Position numbers and translations under genes: made by a program. This document shows positions 1,953 through 17,275 of a stretch of DNA of 64,000 nucleotides, piece after piece. Each line of letters begins with the position of its first letter. The stretch's first letter is position 1. The stretch lies in sequence record OL960577.1, one strand, 5' to 3'. The notes beneath the pieces are model-generated. The model was not told the DNA's origin. It saw only the letters and a list, made by a program, of their open reading frames with translations, and did no database searches. This stretch comes from Escherichia phage vB_EcoM_SA35RD.

Positions 1953-2915
1953 TTATTTCCAAGTCAGTTCGCAGGTCAGTTGAAGAAGCATATACATAAC
2001 ATGTAATTCAATATTACTTGCTAATCCATGAAACTTATTATTTTCGCCTGCAATTTCATAAAGCGAAATAATACTTTTACCAGGTGCAACTTGGTCATAA
2101 CATTCTGAAACTAATTTATCGATGAACCATGAATAATCTGCGGCATATTTTGGAGCTAATGCACGAAGCTGTTTGATATCTTTGTTCTTCATTGCTTCGA
2201 TAACATCAGAGACTGTGCCACGGTCATTAGTTACGATAGACAAAATACCAGCATCAAGAACACCTTTAGACGAGTACTGGTCTAATTGACCAATTGTACG
2301 ACGAAAGTCCGGGAAGTTCTTTTTAACCAGAGCTGCAACAACTTTCATATCAGCGATTTCGATATTTTCATTCTTACAGATTTCAACCATACGATGAATC
2401 ATTTTCTTCATCATCGAGATTTTATCTTCTTCGGTTGGACGTCCGAATTCAATAACTCGACAACGACTACGTAATGGTTCAATAATTCCATCGATGTTGT
2501 TAGCAGTAATAACAATAGAGCAGTTACTAGAGAATTCTTCCATAAACGTACGAAGGTGACGTTGTGATTCGGCGAGACCACTACGGTCGAATTCATCAAT
2601 AACAATAACTTTAGGCTTGCCTTCCATTGAGACTGAACGAGCGAATGCAGTTAACGGACCACGCACAAAATCAATCTTACAATCAGAACCGTTGACGAAC
2701 ATCATTTCGGCATTGATATCATTACATAATGCTTTTGCTACGGTTGTTTTACCTGTACCAGGAGAAGGAGAGTGCAAAATAATATGAGGAAGTTTTCCTT
2801 TAGATACTAAAGACTTGAATGTTTCATGGTCATACGCAGGCAGAATACATTCGTCAATGGAAGAAGGACGATATTTCTGTTCTAGAATGTGTTCTTTGGA
2901 ATTGATAGTAATCAT
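1953..2915 (-). CDS. 44: clamp loader ATPase gp44 (AAA+)
   Basis: 320 aa; Walker [11 protein letters not shown], Walker B VIVIDEFD; position between 62 and 45. Confidence 0.9.
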
Positions 2916-2990
2916 GTAATTTTCCTCATTATCATTAAACTGGAGGATTTCTCCTCCATAATCGTATCACAATAAACGTAAAGCTTTGAC

Positions 2991-3677
2991 TTAGAAGTCG
3001 TGAGTAGAATCGGCTTCCATCGCAATAACATAACTTACTTGAGAGCTTTCAAACTTGGCTGCAACTTTATCACCGGCTCCCCACAACATTACTTTATAAT
3101 TACCTGGCTGGATTTTCATATTAGCCATATTGATTACGAAGTTAAAGTTGTTAGAACCATCATAATCGGTAAGAGTCAAAGAATACTTAGGACGAGTTAG
3201 TCCAGAATCTTCAACTTTATTATAGCCATTGATAACAATTTTACCATCTTTATTTGTAATAGCAATTGTATCAATCTGAAGACCACGTGAAACTCGAAGC
3301 AATTGTTGAAGGTCTTCAGCTTTAATTTCAGTAATCACAGAAGCCACTGGGAATTGAATTGGCTTATTAGGAAAAACAATGGTGCTCTTGTCAGCGGCAG
3401 GCCAATAAACCGTGGAGCGTGTGTCTGCAATTTTAATATTGCCATCAGTGTGCATTGAAATTTCAGCATCATCAGACACTAGACTCAAAATGCTTAAGAA
3501 GCTATTCAAATCATAAAGTGCTACGTCAAAATCAATTTCATCAGAGATATTTGCTTCCGCATAAGTGGTGCCATTAACTGCACGAGTCATAATAAATTTA
3601 CCTTGACTCAGCAGAATGCCGGAGTTAATAGAGGCAAAGTTTTTCAGAATAGCGATAGTATCTTTAGACAGTTTCAT
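2991..3677 (-). CDS. 45: sliding clamp gp45
   Basis: Track ORF 2991..3692; start set to MKLSKDT with AGGAAA RBS; 228 aa as T4 gp45. Confidence 0.9.
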   Translation of the reverse strand: MKLSKDTIAILKNFASINSGILLSQGKFIMTRAVNGTTYAEANISDEIDFDVALYDLNSFLSILSLVSDDAEISMHTDGNIKIADTRSTVYWPAADKSTIVFPNKPIQFPVASVITEIKAEDLQQLLRVSRGLQIDTIAITNKDGKIVINGYNKVEDSGLTRPKYSLTLTDYDGSNNFNFVINMANMKIQPGNYKVMLWGAGDKVAAKFESSQVSYVIAMEADSTHDF

Positions 3678-4391: not shown

Positions 4392-6080
4392 TTATGAAAC
4401 AGTCATTACCGTAAATCGTCCAACTTTGCTCATTTGAAGATGTTGTCCATAAGCTTGTGGGTCATGGTCTCTGTGACTAATTATAAACACGTTTGCATCG
4501 GTTAGAGAGTTAAGAATTGTTGAAATAGCTTTAATACCTTCAGAATCAGTCGCGGAATCCATGACTTCGTCCATAATTAATGTATTGATTCTAACACCAG
4601 AGACCTTTTCAGCAATATCTCGCCATGTAAACAACAACGCGATATCGATACGCGCTTTTTCGCCTTGACTAAATGAAGCATAACTGAACTCTTCACGGCC
4701 ACGTGATTTTATAGATTCATTGAATTCTTCGTCAATAGAAAACACGTAATCGGCTTCCATGATTTTAAGATAATGGTTAATCTGCTTATTGAACAAAGGC
4801 ACGTATTTTTTAATGATAGCACCTTTAATACCAGAATCTTTTAACATATCTGTGATAATACCACGATGGTATTTTTCAAGAACGATATCTGATTTTGTTT
4901 TAATGATTTTATCAAGTTCTTTTTGAAGCAAAGCTATCTCATCGGCATGGTCGATAAATTCCGCTGAGGCTTGTTCTATTGCAGCTTTAACTTTCTTAGC
5001 TTTATCAATAGTGGCAATCATTGCTTGTTTCTTGGTACGAATATCAGATGCAAGGTCCTGTTTAGTCTTAACATTAGCTCTATATTCGTCCACTAGGACA
5101 CTCAGATTATCTCTGTGGCAGGTAAGTTGCTCGAATGAGTGATTACATTCATGAAGCTTATCGGTAATCTTAGAGACAATAGGGTCACCCTGGTGCAACT
5201 GTGATGCGCAAGTAGGACATGTACCGCCATCATGATACATCTTAATAACTTTGTTATATGAGTCAATTTTAGATTTAATCAAGAATGCTTCTTGTCCGAT
5301 CTTGTTGAATGCCTCAGTAGGGTCTTCGTCAAGAACGATATTAAGTAGACGCTCGTTAGCTTCTTCAATTTCTGCTTTTAATGAACGAGCTTCTTTGGCT
5401 AGGTCGTCATACATATTCTGTAGACGCGCTACATTATCGCCAGATAATTTCTTTTGACGTTCGATATTCTCGTTATAAATCTTAATTTGTTGGATAATAC
5501 CATCTTTCTTGGCATCGAGAACTTGTCCCTGGGAATTAAGTTCTCGAACTTGAGACTTATTGATTTTATCCATTTCGGCGAGTGTGCCGACTTCTAAAAG
5601 GTCTTCGACAAGTTTTCTACGAGCAGGGGTGCTAAGAGCCATGAAAGGGGTATACCCTGCCGTCCCAAGCACAACGATTTGTTTAAAAGACGCGTATGAC
5701 ATTCCGATGCTACGTTCAAATTCTTCTTGGAAGTCACGACTGCTGGCAGATTCATCAAGACGAACACCGTCAACGGAGATTTCGAAAATATTGGGCTTTT
5801 GGCCTCGTTTAATGAAGTATTTTTTACCATCGAATTCCATCCAAAGCTCAACTAAGAGCTCTTTCTTGTTCGTGCTATTAATGATTTGTCCTTTCTTAAC
5901 ATCACGAAATGGTTTACCGAAAAGTCCGAAAGTAATGGCTTCTAACATCGTAGATTTACCACCGCCATTTTTACCAGTGATTAATGTCTTTTGGACTTTA
6001 TCTAATTGGATATCAATAGGATTCCCACCTACCGACATGATGTTTTGATAACGAACACGATTTAATTTAAATGATTTCAT
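4392..6080 (-). CDS. 46: recombination endonuclease subunit gp46 (SbcC/Rad50-like ATPase)
   Basis: 562 aa; Walker A GKNGGGKST, ABC signature region FSQGEKAR, Walker B LIMDEV, long coiled-coil middle. Confidence 0.9.
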   Translation of the reverse strand: MKSFKLNRVRYQNIMSVGGNPIDIQLDKVQKTLITGKNGGGKSTMLEAITFGLFGKPFRDVKKGQIINSTNKKELLVELWMEFDGKKYFIKRGQKPNIFEISVDGVRLDESASSRDFQEEFERSIGMSYASFKQIVVLGTAGYTPFMALSTPARRKLVEDLLEVGTLAEMDKINKSQVRELNSQGQVLDAKKDGIIQQIKIYNENIERQKKLSGDNVARLQNMYDDLAKEARSLKAEIEEANERLLNIVLDEDPTEAFNKIGQEAFLIKSKIDSYNKVIKMYHDGGTCPTCASQLHQGDPIVSKITDKLHECNHSFEQLTCHRDNLSVLVDEYRANVKTKQDLASDIRTKKQAMIATIDKAKKVKAAIEQASAEFIDHADEIALLQKELDKIIKTKSDIVLEKYHRGIITDMLKDSGIKGAIIKKYVPLFNKQINHYLKIMEADYVFSIDEEFNESIKSRGREEFSYASFSQGEKARIDIALLFTWRDIAEKVSGVRINTLIMDEVMDSATDSEGIKAISTILNSLTDANVFIISHRDHDPQAYGQHLQMSKVGRFTVMTVS

Positions 6081-8575: not shown

Positions 8576-9140
8576 CCTCATATAAAAAATCCAAACTAGG
8601 CGAATCGCTAACAACTTCCTTCTTTTCAGCCCCAGGAGCTTTATAAGCGGATTCTTCATAATGCGTCATTTTATCGTAGATGTCTTGAATAAACGTTTCA
8701 TCTACCAACGCTACCATATCATCGTCATGGCTGTCGTAGACATTATGAACGAAGTAACTATATTTCTTTGCAACTTCCTTACGTTCTTTTTTGATACGTT
8801 GGACAAAAGCATTAAAACAAGCTCGAGTTATGTATGCATGTGGGTTATTGTACTTAGTTTCGTCGAAATTATGAAGTCCCTTAATAGAGGCTTCAATCCC
8901 ATCTGCAATCATCTCCTGCTTCCAAGACTGGGTATATCCTGAAAAGTTGAAACGTTTGGACAGGCCTTCGGCGATAAGCATAATTGCTAAACCGATGGTA
9001 TCATTCTGACGAATAATTTTGTTTGGGTCTTTATTATTTAAGAGCTCCTTTTTCCACTCGATTATAGCGGCGAGAAGCTCTTTATTATTCACATAGTTAT
9101 TTTTAGGTTTTTGTTCAGTCATAAGTACCTCTTGGCTCAA
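8565..9140 (-). CDS. 55: late-transcription sigma factor gp55
   Basis: [31 protein letters not shown]...[35 protein letters not shown] matches T4 gp55; start may be 9140 or 9122. Confidence 0.85.
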
Positions 9141-9194
9141 TTCATAGGTCTATTATATCATAATATTTAGAGACCTATCTTAAAGCACGAGATA

Positions 9195-9464
9195 CTATCG
9201 GAGCAAACAATAAGCCTGAAACACTTTTTCCATTAAACGTTTGAACTCATGGATATCGATATAAAGCTCAGTAAGACCGGCATTATAAAGAAAATCTAAA
9301 AAGTTCTCATGTGTTTCGTTATAGTCGCCTTCGTTTAATTGAGATACATGAGTTTCCCAAAAACCAACACCTTTAACGAATGGAAAATACGTGACTTTCA
9401 TGTATTCGTCAACATAAAATTCGCCCAGCTTTTCTTCAGTTATACTGATTCGAGTTAATTTCAT
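9195..9464 (-). CDS. hypothetical protein (89 aa)
   Basis: Track ORF. Confidence 0.45.
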   Translation of the reverse strand: MKLTRISITEEKLGEFYVDEYMKVTYFPFVKGVGFWETHVSQLNEGDYNETHENFLDFLYNAGLTELYIDIHEFKRLMEKVFQAYCLLR

Positions 9465-9688
9465 TCTAGTTCCTTTGCTGCTTCAAGAGCAGCATCCAGC
9501 GAATCAAATTGGTCAACGAAATCAATATTCAACGCATCGTCAACCGTAGCATATAACCACCATTGTTTGAATTCGTATTCTAGAATAAATCCAGGACCTT
9601 CAATCTGAGGAAGACCTAGACTATTTGTACCAACTTCGTAACCAGCTAGACGCAGGTCATTAATCAAAGTTTCTGTTAATACGCTCAT
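9461..9688 (-). CDS. hypothetical protein (75 aa)
   Basis: Track ORF, stop overlaps next start. Confidence 0.45.
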   Translation of the reverse strand: MSVLTETLINDLRLAGYEVGTNSLGLPQIEGPGFILEYEFKQWWLYATVDDALNIDFVDQFDSLDAALEAAKELE

Positions 9689-10017
9689 TTTACCGCCTTA
9701 ACAATTTTAAGGTCAACGAATTTTTTCTTACGTTGATTTTTCATACGACGGATAGTCTTTTCAGAGATTTCATGTTTCTGATAAGCTTTAGATTCAACAC
9801 CAAATGCAGCAACGTCAAATTCAGAAAGAATATATTGTACTAGAATTTCACGAATAGAATTACGTCCAATTTTCTGGTCGTGTTTTTGCATGATTTCATA
9901 AAGACGGAATTCCCACGCGTCAAGAACTTGAGGAGTAACAATATTGCCGGATTCCAGAAGAGCAACAACTTTATCGAAAGCGAAAGAATTAACTACGTTT
10001 TTGATTTTAGTAGACAT
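9685..10017 (-). CDS. hypothetical protein (about 110 aa)
   Basis: Track ORF 9685..10065; start moved to ATG at 10017 with GAGGAAAATAAT RBS, downstream of early promoter. Confidence 0.45.
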   Translation of the reverse strand: MSTKIKNVVNSFAFDKVVALLESGNIVTPQVLDAWEFRLYEIMQKHDQKIGRNSIREILVQYILSEFDVAAFGVESKAYQKHEISEKTIRRMKNQRKKKFVDLKIVKAVK

Positions 10018-12555: not shown

Positions 12556-13026
12556 TTAATCATGTTTCCACACCCCATCGGTATTTGACCAAAGTCGCTG
12601 ATTATCTGATCCTCGCCACAGCTTTTTGGTCGGAAGATTTTTCTCATACTTCCCATCAATAATAACATCAACATATTTAAGCATTTCTAGTTGTTTAATA
12701 TCTTCAAACTTATATCCTGTCCACAACCAAATGCTTTTACTGGGATAAAGATTTTTTACTGTTTGAACAATGCAATGAATAACATCTCGATTATCAGGAT
12801 AGAGAGGGTCTCCTCCAGTTATAGTTAATCCTTCTATATAATCATTATTCAAACATTCAATTAATTGTTCTAGTGTCTCTCCAGTGAATGGAACACCGTT
12901 TCTAGCATTCCATGTTGATTTATTATAACATCCTTCACATTTATGCAAACAACCTGTAACGAAAAGAACGACCCTGCAACCAGGGCCATTCACAAAATCG
13001 CAAGGATAAAATCTATCATAATTCAT
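12556..13026 (-). CDS. nrdG: anaerobic ribonucleotide reductase activating protein NrdG (radical SAM)
   Basis: 156 aa; CLHKCEGCYN radical-SAM cysteine motif. Confidence 0.9.
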   Translation of the reverse strand: MNYDRFYPCDFVNGPGCRVVLFVTGCLHKCEGCYNKSTWNARNGVPFTGETLEQLIECLNNDYIEGLTITGGDPLYPDNRDVIHCIVQTVKNLYPSKSIWLWTGYKFEDIKQLEMLKYVDVIIDGKYEKNLPTKKLWRGSDNQRLWSNTDGVWKHD

Positions 13027-14840
13027 TGGTGTTTAACCCTATGCATGATTTCTTTATTTTTGCCAAGATTAAATCCGCGTTCGTTCGGATTTCCCAAATA
13101 ACCACAAGTTCTTCTTATTGTGTTCATCTTTTTAGGGTCAGTTTCTCCGCAAACTGAACAAACAAATCCGTTTTCAGTAGGAGTCATTTCATGGGTACTT
13201 CCACATGTAAAACATTTATCTACTGGCATATTAACACCAAAATAATCTAAATGTTGTGCGGCATAATCCCATACAGCCTCAAGACCTTTTAAGTTATTTT
13301 TCATATCAGGAAGTTCAACATAAGAAATGTGTCCGCCAGTCGCAATGAAATGATATGGGGCTTCGCGAGAAATCTTTTCAAACGGAGTGATATTTTCTTC
13401 TACTGAAACATGGAAACTATTAGTGTACCAGCCTTTATCAGTAACATCCTTTACACTTCCATATTTTTCAGTATCAAGTTTACAGAAGCGATAACAAAGG
13501 TTTTCAGCAGGTGTAGAATACAAACTAAAAGCAAAACCGGTTCTTTCAGTCCACTGTTTAAGATGAGCATTCATTTTAGTTAAAATTTCTTGTCCAATAT
13601 CACGACCGACAAGAATATTCAATTCGTGAATACCAATGTATCCTAGGGACACTGAACTTCTACCGTTTTTAAATAACTCAATTATATCGTCATCAGGTTT
13701 AAGACGAACCCCGAATGCACCTTCTTGGTAAAGAATAGGAGCAACAGTCGCTTTAACTCCTTTTAAGGAACTAATTCTACACATCAAAGCTTCAAAACAC
13801 AAATCCATTCGTTCATTGAACAATTCGGCAAATTTCTGTTCATTGAATTGTGTTCCAATATAAGAATCTAACGCAATGCGAGGAAGATTCAGTGTTACAA
13901 CACCAAGATTATTGCGTCCATCAAGAATTTCATTACCAGTCGAATCTTTCCATACACTCAAGAAACTACGGCAACCCATTGGAGAAACTGGAACTGAAGA
14001 ACCAGTAATAGCTTTATTATTCTTAACCGAAATAATGTCAGGATACATTCTTTTGCTTGCACATTCTAACGCAAGTTGTTTAATATCATAGTTCGGATCA
14101 TCTTTATAAAGATTAACACCTTCTTCAACGAACATAACAAGCTTAGGGAAAATAGGAGTTATTCCATCACGACCAAGGCCTTTAATGCGGTTTTTAAGAA
14201 TTGCTTTCTGAATCATTCGTTCAGTCCAGTCGGTTCCTGTACCAAATGTAATTGTTACAAAAGGAGTCTGTCCGTTTGAACTAAAGAGAGTATTTACTTC
14301 ATATTCATAAGCTTGGAATGCATCGTATACGTCTTTTTCTGTTTTAGATTGAGCATAATTCAACGCATCAGCGATTTGCCATTTTTCTGCATCTTCAACA
14401 TGTTTAGCGTATGTACGTTTAACATAAGGAGAAAGAACTTTATCGACATTTGCAAATGTAGTTCCGCCATACTGATGTGAAGCAACTTGTGCAGTAATTT
14501 GTGCCATAATTGCAGTAGCAACACCAATCGATTTAGGCGTTTCAATTTGAGCATTGCCTAATTTAAATCCATTCTCAAGCATCCCCTTTAAATCGACTAA
14601 ACAGCAATTGGTAAACGGAAGAGCAGGAGAATAATCAATATCATGCATGTGGATAATTCCACTTTCATGCGCATTCATAATAAAAGACGGGACCGTATTT
14701 TTGGCAATGTGCTTAGACACAATACCAGCCATAAGGTCCCGTTGAGTTGGAAAAACACGAGAATCTTTATTAGCATTCTCGTTTAAAAGGTCTTTATTAG
14801 TTTTATGAATTAATCCTTCAATTTCTTTTTCAATTTTCAT
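13023..14840 (-). CDS. nrdD: anaerobic ribonucleoside-triphosphate reductase NrdD
   Basis: 605 aa; C-terminal Zn-ribbon CFTCGSTHEMTPTENGFVCSVCG and glycyl radical region RRTCGYLG; uninterrupted ORF. Confidence 0.9.
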   Translation of the reverse strand: MKIEKEIEGLIHKTNKDLLNENANKDSRVFPTQRDLMAGIVSKHIAKNTVPSFIMNAHESGIIHMHDIDYSPALPFTNCCLVDLKGMLENGFKLGNAQIETPKSIGVATAIMAQITAQVASHQYGGTTFANVDKVLSPYVKRTYAKHVEDAEKWQIADALNYAQSKTEKDVYDAFQAYEYEVNTLFSSNGQTPFVTITFGTGTDWTERMIQKAILKNRIKGLGRDGITPIFPKLVMFVEEGVNLYKDDPNYDIKQLALECASKRMYPDIISVKNNKAITGSSVPVSPMGCRSFLSVWKDSTGNEILDGRNNLGVVTLNLPRIALDSYIGTQFNEQKFAELFNERMDLCFEALMCRISSLKGVKATVAPILYQEGAFGVRLKPDDDIIELFKNGRSSVSLGYIGIHELNILVGRDIGQEILTKMNAHLKQWTERTGFAFSLYSTPAENLCYRFCKLDTEKYGSVKDVTDKGWYTNSFHVSVEENITPFEKISREAPYHFIATGGHISYVELPDMKNNLKGLEAVWDYAAQHLDYFGVNMPVDKCFTCGSTHEMTPTENGFVCSVCGETDPKKMNTIRRTCGYLGNPNERGFNLGKNKEIMHRVKHQ

Positions 14841-15310
14841 TTTAAACTCTTTCTAAGCTGCTTTTTGAATGAAGCTATTAATTGTGTTTTAGTATCAGAT
14901 TCATTATATTCAAATCCTCTTTGAAGCATCTCGGACATCATTTCCTCTTTACCTAGTCTTGAGAACTCTTTAGTTTTGTCTGGAACAAAATTAGGATGGA
15001 TATTATTATCAGAATAATCTTGTTTCAAATAAGCAAGAAGAGATTCAAGCCATTCGAGGTAGTCGACATCACGACCTTTAAGACCAGAACGGTTGAACTT
15101 ATGCTTCATTTGGCCTTCTGCTGCGTTGCACAGATTACAGAGTAACCCACGAACTCTACCTGCTTTTGGCCCGTTTAATTCGTGGTCGTGGTCAAGATGG
15201 TTACCTTGAACATCAGGGTCTAATTCACGGTGGCAAATAGGACACTTACCGTTCTGTGCATCATAAAATTTTTGTTTTTCTTCTTTGTATAATTTGCCAG
15301 ATAATAACAT
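14837..15310 (-). CDS. 49: endonuclease VII (Holliday junction resolvase) gp49
   Basis: 157 aa; KCPICHREL...HLDHDHELNGPKAGRVRGLLCNLCN zinc/H-N-H-like motif matches T4 endo VII. Confidence 0.85.
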   Translation of the reverse strand: MLLSGKLYKEEKQKFYDAQNGKCPICHRELDPDVQGNHLDHDHELNGPKAGRVRGLLCNLCNAAEGQMKHKFNRSGLKGRDVDYLEWLESLLAYLKQDYSDNNIHPNFVPDKTKEFSRLGKEEMMSEMLQRGFEYNESDTKTQLIASFKKQLRKSLK

Positions 15311-15339
15311 AATAAACCCTTACCATATATAGATAAGGG

Positions 15340-15347
15340 TATTTATA
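15340..15347 (-). promoter_or_regulatory. late promoter TATAAATA upstream of gene 49
   Basis: Forward tatttata = minus-strand TATAAATA, about 30 nt upstream of gp49 start. Confidence 0.6.
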
Positions 15348-15349
15348 AT

Positions 15350-15529
15350 TTAGTAAACGTTATAAAAGTCTCGATGAAAACGTTTATACTGTCGAATCAT
15401 TCTTTTAGTAGGACGTGTTACCGAAATGATTGAAGTCCTCATGTTCGGATTGTTTGGAGCCCCAATCATAATAAATTTCCAGGATTTTTGGCCGTTTGTT
15501 CTTTCGCCATAAAATAGTTCAGTTTTCAT
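15350..15529 (-). CDS. hypothetical small basic protein (59 aa), paralogue family VTRPTKR...KRxHRxFY
   Basis: Hand-translated MKTELFYGERTNGQKSWKFIMIGAPNNPNMRTSIISVTRPTKRMIRQYKRFHRDFYNVY; below track cutoff. Confidence 0.4.
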   Translation of the reverse strand: MKTELFYGERTNGQKSWKFIMIGAPNNPNMRTSIISVTRPTKRMIRQYKRFHRDFYNVY

Positions 15530-15538
15530 AATAAACCT

Positions 15539-15952
15539 TTAACTTAAACGTCTTTCTAAATATTCAATGTATTCCGCTGCGGCTTGCATCAGATTACCTT
15601 CATAACCGTCATTATTTTCTTGGGCGGCTAATTTAGCTAAAGCATAAGAAATACGTTCACCTTCGAATTCGCCAAGTCCACCATCACAAACTACTTGGTC
15701 AATTTCTTCGAGTTCATCTATTGAATGGGATTCCCAGAAGCACCAAAGAGAAGTATCACGGTCATAGATGCAAAGTTTCTCACCTGTGTTCAACATCACT
15801 TCAATAATGCCATGGTCGCCATAACCATCTTCGGTAGTAGTACCAATTACCTTGATGATCGTATCTTTCTTTAATTCAGGAAACTTGACTTGTAGTTCTT
15901 CATCTTCTTTAACAATCTTGAACCATTTACCGCGAGTTTCAGAAATATTCAT
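15539..15952 (-). CDS. hypothetical acidic protein (about 137 aa)
   Basis: Track ORF 15539..16090; N-terminal 46 codons look out-of-frame, start set to MNISETRGKWF. Confidence 0.45.
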   Translation of the reverse strand: MNISETRGKWFKIVKEDEELQVKFPELKKDTIIKVIGTTTEDGYGDHGIIEVMLNTGEKLCIYDRDTSLWCFWESHSIDELEEIDQVVCDGGLGEFEGERISYALAKLAAQENNDGYEGNLMQAAAEYIEYLERRLS

Positions 15953-15953
15953 A

Positions 15954-16124
15954 TCAATATTCTCTATAAAAGTTACGATGAGAACGTTTAGCTTTGCGAA
16001 GCTGACGTTTAGTAGGACGAACTGTAAATGGTTGTCCAGAGAAAAAATTCGGATCGGTTTTAATAAGCAAATACCAATCATGCTTGCCATTTTTTAATAA
16101 ACGGTACAATAATTTAACTTGCAT
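15954..16124 (-). CDS. hypothetical small basic protein (about 56 aa), paralogue of 15350..15529
   Basis: Track ORF 15954..16151; ...GQPFTVRPTKRQLRKAKRSHRNFYREY shares C-terminal motif. Confidence 0.4.
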   Translation of the reverse strand: MQVKLLYRLLKNGKHDWYLLIKTDPNFFSGQPFTVRPTKRQLRKAKRSHRNFYREY

Positions 16125-16252
16125 AATAATCTCTTCCCATCTCCATATCAATTAATTCATTTATTGAAGGTTCATCATAACACGTTTCTTCGTCGTTGTA
16201 AACTGTTTCGACGTCTGGCTCGACTGTCTCCCATCGAGCCGAATACCATGGC

Positions 16253-16609
16253 TTAACCCCGGAGTTTATTGAGCTCTTCATAATCAATCCAGGATTCTAG
16301 CCCTGACGGCAGGTCACATTCAATGTTCCACAGAAGCTCTTCAATGGCTTGCAGGCGATTATATTCTTCAACGGTAATGGTAACCATTGGTGCAACCGGT
16401 TCTGTCTTTTTAACCATCATGTCGTTCATCAGGACGTAAAGGTCATCACGAACGACAGTGTCGTTCCATCCCCATGATTTGGCTTCGTAAGCTAATGATG
16501 AAGGGAGCACATTTAAAACTTCAATAATAGTTGGAGCATCAGGACCAAGTTCATTGGCACAAACTTCGTATACATCTTGGAAATCTTTAAGATTTAATGA
16601 ATATGTCAT
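16253..16609 (-). CDS. hypothetical protein (118 aa)
   Basis: Track ORF. Confidence 0.5.
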   Translation of the reverse strand: MTYSLNLKDFQDVYEVCANELGPDAPTIIEVLNVLPSSLAYEAKSWGWNDTVVRDDLYVLMNDMMVKKTEPVAPMVTITVEEYNRLQAIEELLWNIECDLPSGLESWIDYEELNKLRG

Positions 16610-16869
16610 TTAAAATATTCTCGTAGTTGGTCAAAGCCACCGATCGAAGTTCCATCAGGAGCAAACACTTGAGGCATAGTCAATCCGACTTGTGATTCAC
16701 GTCCAAGCTTAACCAGAAGCTCAGCAATTTTTTCTTCATCGAATACACCTTTTTCTGGCATAACATTAATGAATTCGAACGGCTGTTTCTTAACAGTCAG
16801 CAATCGTTTCGCATTATCACAATAAATGCATTTATGAATAATAGAGTCATACCCGTACACTTTAAACAT
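16606..16869 (-). CDS. nrdC: thioredoxin NrdC
   Basis: MFKVYGYDSIIHKCIYCDNAKRLLTVKKQPFEFINVMPEKGVF matches T4 NrdC; CxxC active site. Confidence 0.85.
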   Translation of the reverse strand: MFKVYGYDSIIHKCIYCDNAKRLLTVKKQPFEFINVMPEKGVFDEEKIAELLVKLGRESQVGLTMPQVFAPDGTSIGGFDQLREYFK

Positions 16870-17275
16870 TATTTTTCCTTTCATCGATTAAATATGCAAT
16901 GCCAAATACAATACATGTAATAAAACCTGTTATACAGATAGAAACCAACAACACTGTACCAAAGAACCAAATCAAGTTATCTTTAGTAGTTTGTTTGATA
17001 TCCATCTCACGAATTTCTATAGCTATCGTATCACCTTTATTCAGAAGCGTATAAAACGAAGGTGATACACGCCTGTCAAAAACTCGTCCTTGCTCATCTT
17101 TATAGACTGCAATAAATTCTAATTTAGAATATTTTCCTGTAGATTGGCCTGAGATTAATTCCACTACCTCCACAGGAATTACTTTAGTTTCCATGTAAGT
17201 ATTCTGGCTGTTCCAAATGAATGGAATAATAGCAAAAACTAAAGCTGCGATAAAACAACGAAGGCTATATCTCAT
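16862..17275 (-). CDS. hypothetical membrane protein (137 aa)
   Basis: Track ORF; N- and C-terminal hydrophobic spans. Confidence 0.5.
   Translation of the reverse strand: MRYSLRCFIAALVFAIIPFIWNSQNTYMETKVIPVEVVELISGQSTGKYSKLEFIAVYKDEQGRVFDRRVSPSFYTLLNKGDTIAIEIREMDIKQTTKDNLIWFFGTVLLVSICITGFITCIVFGIAYLIDERKNNV

Follow-up and report, generated by a model that had tools for sequence, protein, structure and literature searches.

Two diverged DUF7279 genes flank the Lon-inhibitor gene pin in a Mosigvirus phage and may serve as repeats for its deletion

Just upstream of gene 49 in Escherichia phage vB_EcoM_SA35RD, two small, strongly basic open reading frames (ORFs) bracket an ORF for an acidic protein of 137 amino acids (isoelectric point 4.38, net charge -16). 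This arrangement raises the question of whether the two small ORFs are related genes, and of what their position on either side of a third gene means. The locus was analysed in the window, the whole stretch of 64,000 nucleotides from sequence record OL960577.1, where this region shares 96-99% identity with RB69-like T-even phages (genus Mosigvirus). A preliminary description of the DNA had paired an ORF of 59 amino acids with one of 56 (here termed orf59 and orf56), and had suggested a duplicated insertion or a small regulatory module. Both ORFs are present on the minus strand as claimed, and the sizes, charges and shared motif quoted for them are all correct. The best overall explanation, to which we give a probability of roughly 0.55, is that orf56 and orf59 are genuine, diverged paralogues of the DUF7279 family, that their products would be accessory polyanion-binding proteins, and that the genes would double as repeats for deletion of the gene between them, pin.

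The relationship between the two small proteins is confirmed by several comparisons. They are 37% identical over their full length (BLASTP with composition adjustment, E=1e-11), and their Smith-Waterman score is 97 compared with 23.2 +/- 4.5 for shuffled sequences (n=5000, z=16.5), none of which reached 97. The similarity is therefore not compositional chance, a doubt that the preliminary description had raised itself. Moreover, the non-basic N-terminal halves alone also beat 5000 of 5000 shuffles, and the similarity of these halves is significant as protein but barely so as DNA. The invariant columns of the alignment are M1, L5, Y7, G13, W17, P28, N29, R39, P40, T41, K42, R43, R46, K49, R50, H52, R53, F55, Y56 and Y59. 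The two peptides have isoelectric points of 10.75 and 10.82 and net charges of +8.6 and +10.7. Both belong to PF23945 (DUF7279), with 53.1 bits (E=3e-14) for orf59 and 54.5 bits (E=1.1e-14) for orf56 against a gathering threshold of 24.5 bits, over profile positions 1 or 2 to 53 of 53. They also match phrog_3272 from end to end (positions 1-59 of 59), with E=3.8e-30 for orf59 and E=5.8e-27 for orf56. A six-frame scan with hidden Markov models found no third DUF7279 copy in the 64-kb window. Thus, orf56 and orf59 are true, diverged paralogues of DUF7279 / phrog_3272.

Both ORFs also look like real genes. In all comparisons of orf59-type orthologues (from the window, RB69, G2285, PP01 and VR7), the ratio of nonsynonymous to synonymous change (dN/dS) is 0.13-0.25, and third-position differences predominate. 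Within the motif RPTKR..R..KR.HR.FY the amino acids are fixed, with synonymous drift between AAA and AAG, among CGA, CGT, CGC and CGG, and between TAT and TAC. A Shine-Dalgarno-like sequence precedes each small ORF, and their start contexts, AAAGGTTTATTATG for orf59 and AAGAGATTATTATG for orf56, are close to that of gene 49, AAGGGTTTATTATG. The initiation regions of these three genes form a family of 20-nt repeats that read A/G-rich and then TTATTATG on the coding strand, and the contexts of orf59 and gene 49 differ by 1 base in 14. The packing is tight and typical of T-even phages: the start of orf56 (the ATG at 16124, internal to a 65-amino-acid ORF that begins with TTG) overlaps the end of a 49.1-like gene by 11 nt, its stop lies 1 nt from the pin ATG, and 9 nt separate the pin stop from the start of orf59. 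In many GenBank records both small ORFs are annotated as coding sequences, including RB69 ORF087c and ORF089c.

The RB69 annotation of orf56 can be corrected. At codons 9-11, the RB69 reference (NC_004928) has seven A residues where the window and JK45 have six (about 1780-1800 in locus L001, equivalent to about 16085-16095 in the window). The extra A in this run is a frameshift, and ORF089c is therefore annotated as only 38 amino acids. The frameshift may have arisen naturally by slippage or may be an error of sequencing. Between the two paralogues dS is 0.70 and dN is 0.60, which was considered as a sign of gene conversion or DNA-level constraint. This was rejected because the identical codons are those preferred by the phage and the orthologues vary synonymously at the same sites.

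The acidic ORF in the middle is, as judged by its profile matches, Pin (PinA), the inhibitor of the host Lon protease. It matches PF10465 (Inhibitor_I24) with 160.2 bits over profile positions 2-136 of 136, against a threshold of 27 bits, and phrog_2167 with E=3.7e-51. An extended ORF of 183 amino acids was rejected as the pin gene, since the Pfam match and the RB69 annotation both begin at the ATG at 15952. T4 PinA is a known inhibitor of Lon from E. coli (Skorupski et al. 1988 and Hilliard et al. 1998, both cited in PMC9697503), and within the references cited there the inhibition of Lon ATPase and proteolysis is a biochemical property known for T4 PinA only. Like T4 PinA, Pin of the window keeps the block FxGERISYALAKLAxQENNDGYEGNLMQAAAEYIE, but it is 24 amino acids shorter.

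This difference in length touches the small genes directly. In T4 and T2 the DUF7279 gene is gone, and its last 13-15 codons are fused in frame to the C-terminus of Pin. The T4/T2 Pin tail reads ...SFSDR-MIQQYKRLHQMFYNT, while PP01 Pin ends with ...SFSDRAF and a stop, and the next PP01 gene ends with ...KKMIRQYKRLHRMFYNT and a stop. The relic lies at 4898-4945 on the minus strand of the T4 locus (L005, NC_000866; compared with 15350-15400 of the window), and two of its motif arginines are replaced by glutamine. T4 Pin (161 amino acids) is therefore a pin::DUF7279-3' fusion formed by a deletion of about 135 nt, and its C-terminal 13 residues are not Pin sequence.

The presence and absence of this arrangement was checked in related phages and was found to vary. 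Four arrangements of the 49.1-to-49 interval segregate within Mosigvirus: orf56-pin-orf59 (allele A: the window, RB69 and JK45), orf56-pin (allele B: APCEc01), a single small gene without pin (allele C: AV114 and phiE142) and pin-orf59 (allele D: G2285). Two copies around pin are thus confined to some Mosigvirus phages, pin can occur with either copy alone, and a small gene can occur without pin. In addition, pin occurs without an intact DUF7279 gene in T4 and CGG4-1. The obligate co-occurrence of a toxin-antitoxin-like pair, or of an inhibitor and its partner, was not found, and orf56 and orf59 are not an obligate unit with pin. This free assortment contradicts the small regulatory module that had been suggested, insofar as it would be an obligate one.

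The pin-less allele C carries a distinct footprint. In allele A, the 3' coding parts of orf56 and orf59, which encode the RPTKR..KR.HR.FY motif, form direct repeats of 55 nt with 76% identity and a start-to-start spacing of 604 nt (Table 1). Allele C is shorter by exactly this length, its interval spanning 498 nt instead of 1102 nt. The single gene of allele C is an orf56/orf59 chimera with its crossover within ACTTTTATA, which is common to both copies. In AV114 and phiE142 the chimera is orf56-like through ...CATCGTAACTTTTATA and orf59-like from ACGTTTACTAAATTATAAATACCC, and at the junction ...CATCGTAACTTTTATA runs directly into ACGTTTACTAA. In codons, orf56 continues through ...CAT CGT AAC TTT TAT A and is followed by AC GTT TAC TAA of orf59 and its downstream late-promoter region, so that the protein ends in FYNVY rather than FYREY.

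Table 1. Coordinates of orf56, pin, orf59 and associated features in the window, followed by the neighbouring genes.
Feature	Position	Strand	Basis
orf56, upstream DUF7279 gene, 56-aa basic protein (RB69 ORF089c)	15954-16124	minus	PF23945; phrog_3272
pin (PinA), 137 aa, acidic, between both paralogues	15539-15952	minus	PF10465; phrog_2167; RB69 annotation
orf59, downstream DUF7279 gene, 59-aa basic protein (RB69 ORF087c)	15350-15529	minus	PF23945; phrog_3272
Direct repeat copy 1, 55 nt, 3' coding part of orf59	15361-15415		repeat search, family D1
Direct repeat copy 2, 55 nt, 3' coding part of orf56	15965-16019		repeat search, family D1
Crossover site, 9 nt, ACTTTTATA	15361-15369, shared with 15965-15973	minus	alignment and codon display
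20-nt initiation-region repeat, gene 49	15308-15327		
20-nt initiation-region repeat, orf59	15527-15546		
20-nt initiation-region repeat, orf56	16122-16141		
Sigma-70/T4-early-like promoter match (TTTACA, 17-nt spacer, TATGAT, TG)	16174-16202	minus	promoter scan, 10/12
Late-promoter-like box TATAAATA (15347-15340), then 9-bp hairpin	15316-15347	minus	sequence; terminator scan
49.1-like small acidic ORF, upstream neighbour	16114-16287	minus	phrog_2382, E=1.7e-28; gp49.1 in RB69 annotation
Gene 49 (endonuclease VII), downstream neighbour	14837-15310	minus	ORF list; annotation of RB69 and relatives
118-aa ORF	16253-16609	minus	
nrdC	16606-16884	minus	
nrdD	13023-14840	minus	

Diagnostic searches of the phage collection show how common these junctions are, with RefSeq/GenBank duplicates included in the counts. 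The contiguous chimera junction of allele C was found in 33 records, and both halves of it in separate places (allele A) in 35. The orf56-to-pin junction (alleles A and B) was found in 102 records, and the pin-to-orf59 junction (alleles A and D) in 53. Because the 3' segments of the two genes are 76% identical over 55 nt, in direct orientation and 604 nt apart, recombination between them deletes pin and leaves a functional-looking chimera ahead of gene 49. Such recombination accounts for a common natural pin-minus allele in Mosigvirus.

The interval bears several further scars. In allele B (APCEc01, L008 2095-2135, compared with 15340-15545 of the window) orf59 is cleanly deleted between two TAAA tetranucleotides. 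This deletion turns the box before gene 49 from TATAAATA into GTTAAATA, and the late expression of endonuclease VII might differ in allele-B phages. In Salmonella phage S16, the DUF7279 genes gp48.1 and gp48.2 flank an unrelated gene of 116 amino acids, gp48.3 (phrog_13441; L011 10063-10759). The downstream copy, gp48.2, joins the first ~18 codons of pin to the final ~37 of a Merlin-type DUF7279 gene at the junction GATGATGG. In CGG4-1 (L013 2501-3017) an intact pin is followed by TATTGGCTCTATAATTGAGATAAAT, a non-coding remnant of a DUF7279 gene. From these scars, and those in T4/T2 and RB69, it follows that the genes are dispensable and the region highly plastic. Overall, DUF7279 is an ordinary family of accessory genes that the phages can do without, set in a plastic region.

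A comparable process has been described for PeSL, the mobile regulatory cassettes found in T4-type phages (Arbiol et al. 2010, PMC2839356; Comeau et al. 2014, PMC4122927). These non-coding cassettes combine a strong, sigma-70-like early promoter with a stem-loop terminator, and they drive modular shuffling in hyperplastic regions (PMC2839356, PMC4122927). The pin locus is like the PeSL case in that short direct repeats surround a non-essential gene in a hyperplastic region, and in that repeat recombination yields an indel polymorphism among close relatives, here a 604-nt pin deletion with its junction inside the repeat. It is unlike the PeSL case in that the repeats are conserved 3' coding segments of paralogous genes and the recombination product is an in-frame chimeric gene. 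A repeat search of 15200-16300 found no inverted repeats, and there are no promoter matches within the two repeats. The resemblance to PeSL is one of working and not of membership, and the combination of promoter and stem-loop is not present in the repeats, which lie inside coding sequence.

How the two copies came to stand on either side of pin can be approached through their relatives. By tblastn, about 490 phage records contain the gene, and every one belongs to a T-even phage of Escherichia, Shigella, Salmonella, Yersinia or Proteus. An exhaustive HMMER search of 1.84 billion cluster representatives gave only two 50%-identity clusters and no distant annotated relative, and an index of 5.8 billion proteins gave 19 clusters at 90% identity, all with PF23945. 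Word-indexed searches gave 2 and 19 clusters, the 19 being those of this index; all are T-even-like. The IMG/VR scan gave just 2 loci. An orf59-type copy in a metagenomic contig of IMG/VR (UViG_3300030021_000012, 3001-3174) has an altered N-terminus (KLHYFFGER...) and no ATG at the usual position; it may be decaying or may use an alternative start. Related PHROGs are phrog_15176, 2375, 8921 and 12748, with members that include JS98 ORF076c, VR7 ORF082c and S16 gp48.1/gp48.2. The distant members of the family are gp48.1 and gp48.2 of the Gelderlandvirus S16 (each ~42 bits to PF23945) and gp79 of the Moonvirus Merlin. Literature searches on DUF7279, the RB69 ORF, locus and protein identifiers gave nothing relevant, the one match being to Aeh1ORF087c.

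The two copies differ in their distribution. A single copy between pin and 49 is found in the Tequatrovirus phages PP01 and RB32 (56-60% identity), Gaprivervirus VR7, the JS98/VR20 group and Moonvirus Merlin, and orf59 is the positional orthologue of this intergenic gene. Copies of the orf56 type (at least 87% identity) occur in Mosigvirus only, and every other match is at most 43% identical. This marks orf56 as a diverged extra copy restricted to Mosigvirus. With only 37% identity between the paralogues, orthologues of orf59 elsewhere and orf56 confined to Mosigvirus, the pair therefore reflects an old, diverged duplication or the acquisition of a homologue, and not a fresh duplication by insertion of pin.

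The predicted fold offers some indication of function. Two independent AlphaFold2 runs, with 4 and 16 sequences, gave the order strand-strand-strand-helix with a confidence (predicted local distance difference test, pLDDT) of 81.4 for orf59 and 80.5 for orf56. Each protein of ~57 amino acids is predicted to form a three-stranded antiparallel sheet packed on one amphipathic C-terminal helix of 17 residues. On a helical wheel the Lys and Arg residues gather on one face (resultants of 0.75 and 0.67, with 39 and 9 of 10000 permutations as extreme), and the hydrophobic and aromatic residues lie ~200-220 degrees from that face. The hydrophobic face presumably packs on the sheet. With the basic residues one-sided and the hydrophobic ones opposite, R39, P40, T41, K42, R43, R46, K49, R50, H52 and R53 would therefore make up an exposed basic stripe, and the conserved sequence R-P-T-K-R-x-x-R-x-x-K-R-x-H-R is modelled as facing the solvent. 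Most differences between the two copies fall in the sheet, and the helix motif does not vary.

A basic stripe at the C-terminus would be compatible with nucleic-acid binding. The proteins would then be small, early-expressed and dispensable, with an accessory or host-takeover role, and would use the stripe to bind a polyanionic target, most likely nucleic acid (RNA or DNA); the two copies, having diverged in the sheet, may recognise different targets. We hold the proposal of polyanion (nucleic-acid) binding through the stripe tentatively, at somewhat less than even odds. In structure comparison, matches to the three-stranded-sheet/helix arm-binding domain of tyrosine integrases (such as 3jtz), the PUR repeat and the double-stranded-RNA-binding domain were insignificant, and no better than those to RNase-H-like or RWD sub-structures. 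No sequence relation to small sheet-plus-helix nucleic-acid binders or to arginine-rich helical RNA-binding motifs was found in profile searches of PDB sequences or NCBIfam. Integrase arm-binding and AP2-type domains contact DNA with the sheet, whereas the conserved basic residues of DUF7279 lie on the helix. Among PDB sequences, the profile search matched designed propeller proteins only, over a beta-hairpin, and NCBIfam and PADLOC gave no matches for the small proteins.

The surrounding signals suggest when the genes would be expressed. Directly after the orf59 stop codon comes the TATAAATA box and then a hairpin, ACCCTTATC...GGTAAGGGT, whose 3' arm contains the gene 49 Shine-Dalgarno sequence. 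The box and hairpin are conserved in T4, PP01, G2285 and APCEc01 and are annotated as a terminator in some records. We take them to be the classical gene 49 control element, by which the ribosome-binding site of gene 49 is reportedly sequestered in long early transcripts and free in late ones, as Barth et al. are said to have described in 1988. Upstream, a promoter match lies within the 49.1-like ORF, ~50 nt before the orf56 start; it is a consensus match only. Three features suggest early expression of orf56 and orf59: they share their orientation with pin and 49, the promoter match lies at 16202-16174, and a late promoter and hairpin follow orf59. Both would be translated from the prereplicative transcripts, running rightward to leftward, that also carry 49.1, pin and early gene 49.

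Several points weigh against the explanation preferred here. No fold, family or paper gives DUF7279 a function, and the target of the basic stripe could just as well be an acidic protein or a membrane. The expression of orf56 and orf59 is read from sequence signals only. The 33 pin-less records could stem from one ancient event instead of recurrent recombination. Finally, the genes are often lost and hence dispensable, and decay could be under way in some copies.

Other explanations of the pair itself are much weaker. If the ORFs were untranslated, their similarity would come from a DNA or RNA element present more than once, perhaps a regulatory cassette or recombination site, whose reading frame is open by chance; the conserved part is indeed a 55-nt direct repeat serving as a recombination substrate, and CGTCCTACTAA is identical in every copy examined. 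This is scarcely credible, however, given the purifying selection on amino acids with synonymous drift within the motif, N-terminal halves that are similar as protein and hardly as DNA, proper ribosome-binding sites and tight packing, and distant members (S16 and Merlin) that retain the protein pattern at 22-33% identity. An RNA element is also unsupported because no Rfam family comes near its gathering score in the region and there is no inverted repeat. It is likewise highly improbable that the pair is the footprint of a recent insertion, with pin as a mobile cassette that duplicated its target gene and the two copies as halves or duplicates of that target. The one gene of the pin-less allele, with its orf56 body and orf59 tail, could resemble an empty site when the deletion is read in reverse. 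Yet both flanking genes are full-length and share only 37% amino acid identity, which speaks against the duplicated insertion of the preliminary description, whether as a recent duplication or as a target-site-like duplication by the middle gene. Moreover, the order 49.1-pin-DUF7279-49, without the upstream copy, is probably ancestral because it is common to other genera; pin itself is conserved across those genera, and pin has no transposase, homing endonuclease or terminal inverted repeats beside it here.

For the function of the proteins, two alternatives deserve more weight, though both are unlikely. The proteins may be effectors of anti-defence or host takeover, binding and inhibiting an acidic host protein and not nucleic acid, with the two copies countering different host variants. 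The setting would suit this, as the hyperplastic region is rich in host-interaction genes (pin, and a neighbour matching an 'antitoxin' PHROG), and so would the patchy presence and repeated loss across close relatives, the narrow, fast-diverging family confined to enterobacterial T-even phages, and the variation of the sheet around a fixed helix motif. On the other hand, there is no similarity to a known anti-defence protein or PADLOC model and no literature, and dN/dS is well below 1, so that the few comparisons made show nothing of the positive selection expected in an arms race. Less probable again is that the DUF7279 proteins are partners or regulators of acidic Pin, which would mask, deliver or titrate the Lon inhibitor, so that the genes would stay next to pin because they form a functional module with it. 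Six genera (Mosigvirus, Tequatrovirus, Gaprivervirus, Dhakavirus-type, Moonvirus and Gelderlandvirus) do have a DUF7279 gene next to pin, the small proteins are basic where Pin is acidic (+9 to +11 versus -16), and in T4 and T2 the last 13-15 DUF7279 codons are fused in frame to Pin. But a DUF7279 chimera occurs without pin in 33 records, pin lacks an intact DUF7279 companion in T4 and CGG4-1, the DUF7279-type genes of S16 surround an unrelated 116-amino-acid gene, and the T4 relic has lost two conserved arginines to glutamine. Conserved synteny alone can explain the adjacency.

The locus belongs to the nrdC-49 region, all of whose genes lie on the minus strand in the transcription order nrdC, 118-aa ORF, 49.1-like ORF, orf56, pin, orf59, gene 49 and nrdD. 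The C-terminal 55 residues of the 118-aa ORF match phrog_3402, 'antitoxin from a toxin-antitoxin system' (E=1.6e-32), and show a weak match, below cutoff, to the T7 gp5.9 RecBCD inhibitor (PF25708, 15.8 bits). The RB69 annotation has two ORFs in this stretch (091c and 092c), and in PP01 only the 56-amino-acid C-terminal part exists, as a separate gene. The 118-aa ORF may be a fused or split anti-defence gene. In JK45, WFbE185, phiC120 and APCEc01 an extra gene of ~315 bp (98 amino acids, 49.3-like; JK45 locus 2329-2625, corresponding to ~16600 of the window) lies between the 118-aa ORF and nrdC; the window and RB69 are without it, which makes it a further presence/absence polymorphism of the region. 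Homing-endonuclease genes occur in the neighbourhood in AV114 (between 49 and nrdD, locus 2183-3004), in VR7 (between 49.1 and 49.3, locus 259-939) and in S16 (beside nrdD, where gene 49 is absent, locus 8929-10014). Such insertions may contribute to local rearrangements.

As a gene call, the finding is of little import, for both ORFs were already annotated as hypothetical proteins. The window ORFs are 90-100% identical to such proteins of Mosigvirus genomes, and with DUF7279 and phrog_3272 already catalogued the novelty of the genes is low. The new points are small ones, namely the repeat-mediated deletion of pin, the T4 pin::relic fusion and the corrected annotations. Orthology and paralogy are now assigned, and the annotations of the RB69 ORF089c frameshift and the T4 Pin tail are corrected. 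Classical T4 genetics missed DUF7279 because it is absent from T4 itself. The family is tiny, predicted to be well folded and highly basic, and is biochemically easy to test.

For T-even phages, the locus is a clean natural case in which coding paralogues, and not PeSL, act as direct repeats that delete a host-interaction gene, the Lon inhibitor. A further, distinctly doubtful possibility is that DUF7279 represents a new class of very small phage effector, with a conserved Arg/Lys helical stripe directed at host RNA, DNA or an acidic protein, and that the paralogue pair works as an 'excision switch' for pin. If this is true, homologous recombination between the pair would repeatedly make pin-plus and pin-minus phages in natural Mosigvirus populations. 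A population would thereby toggle Lon inhibition against Lon-dependent host defences, with one intact small gene always kept.

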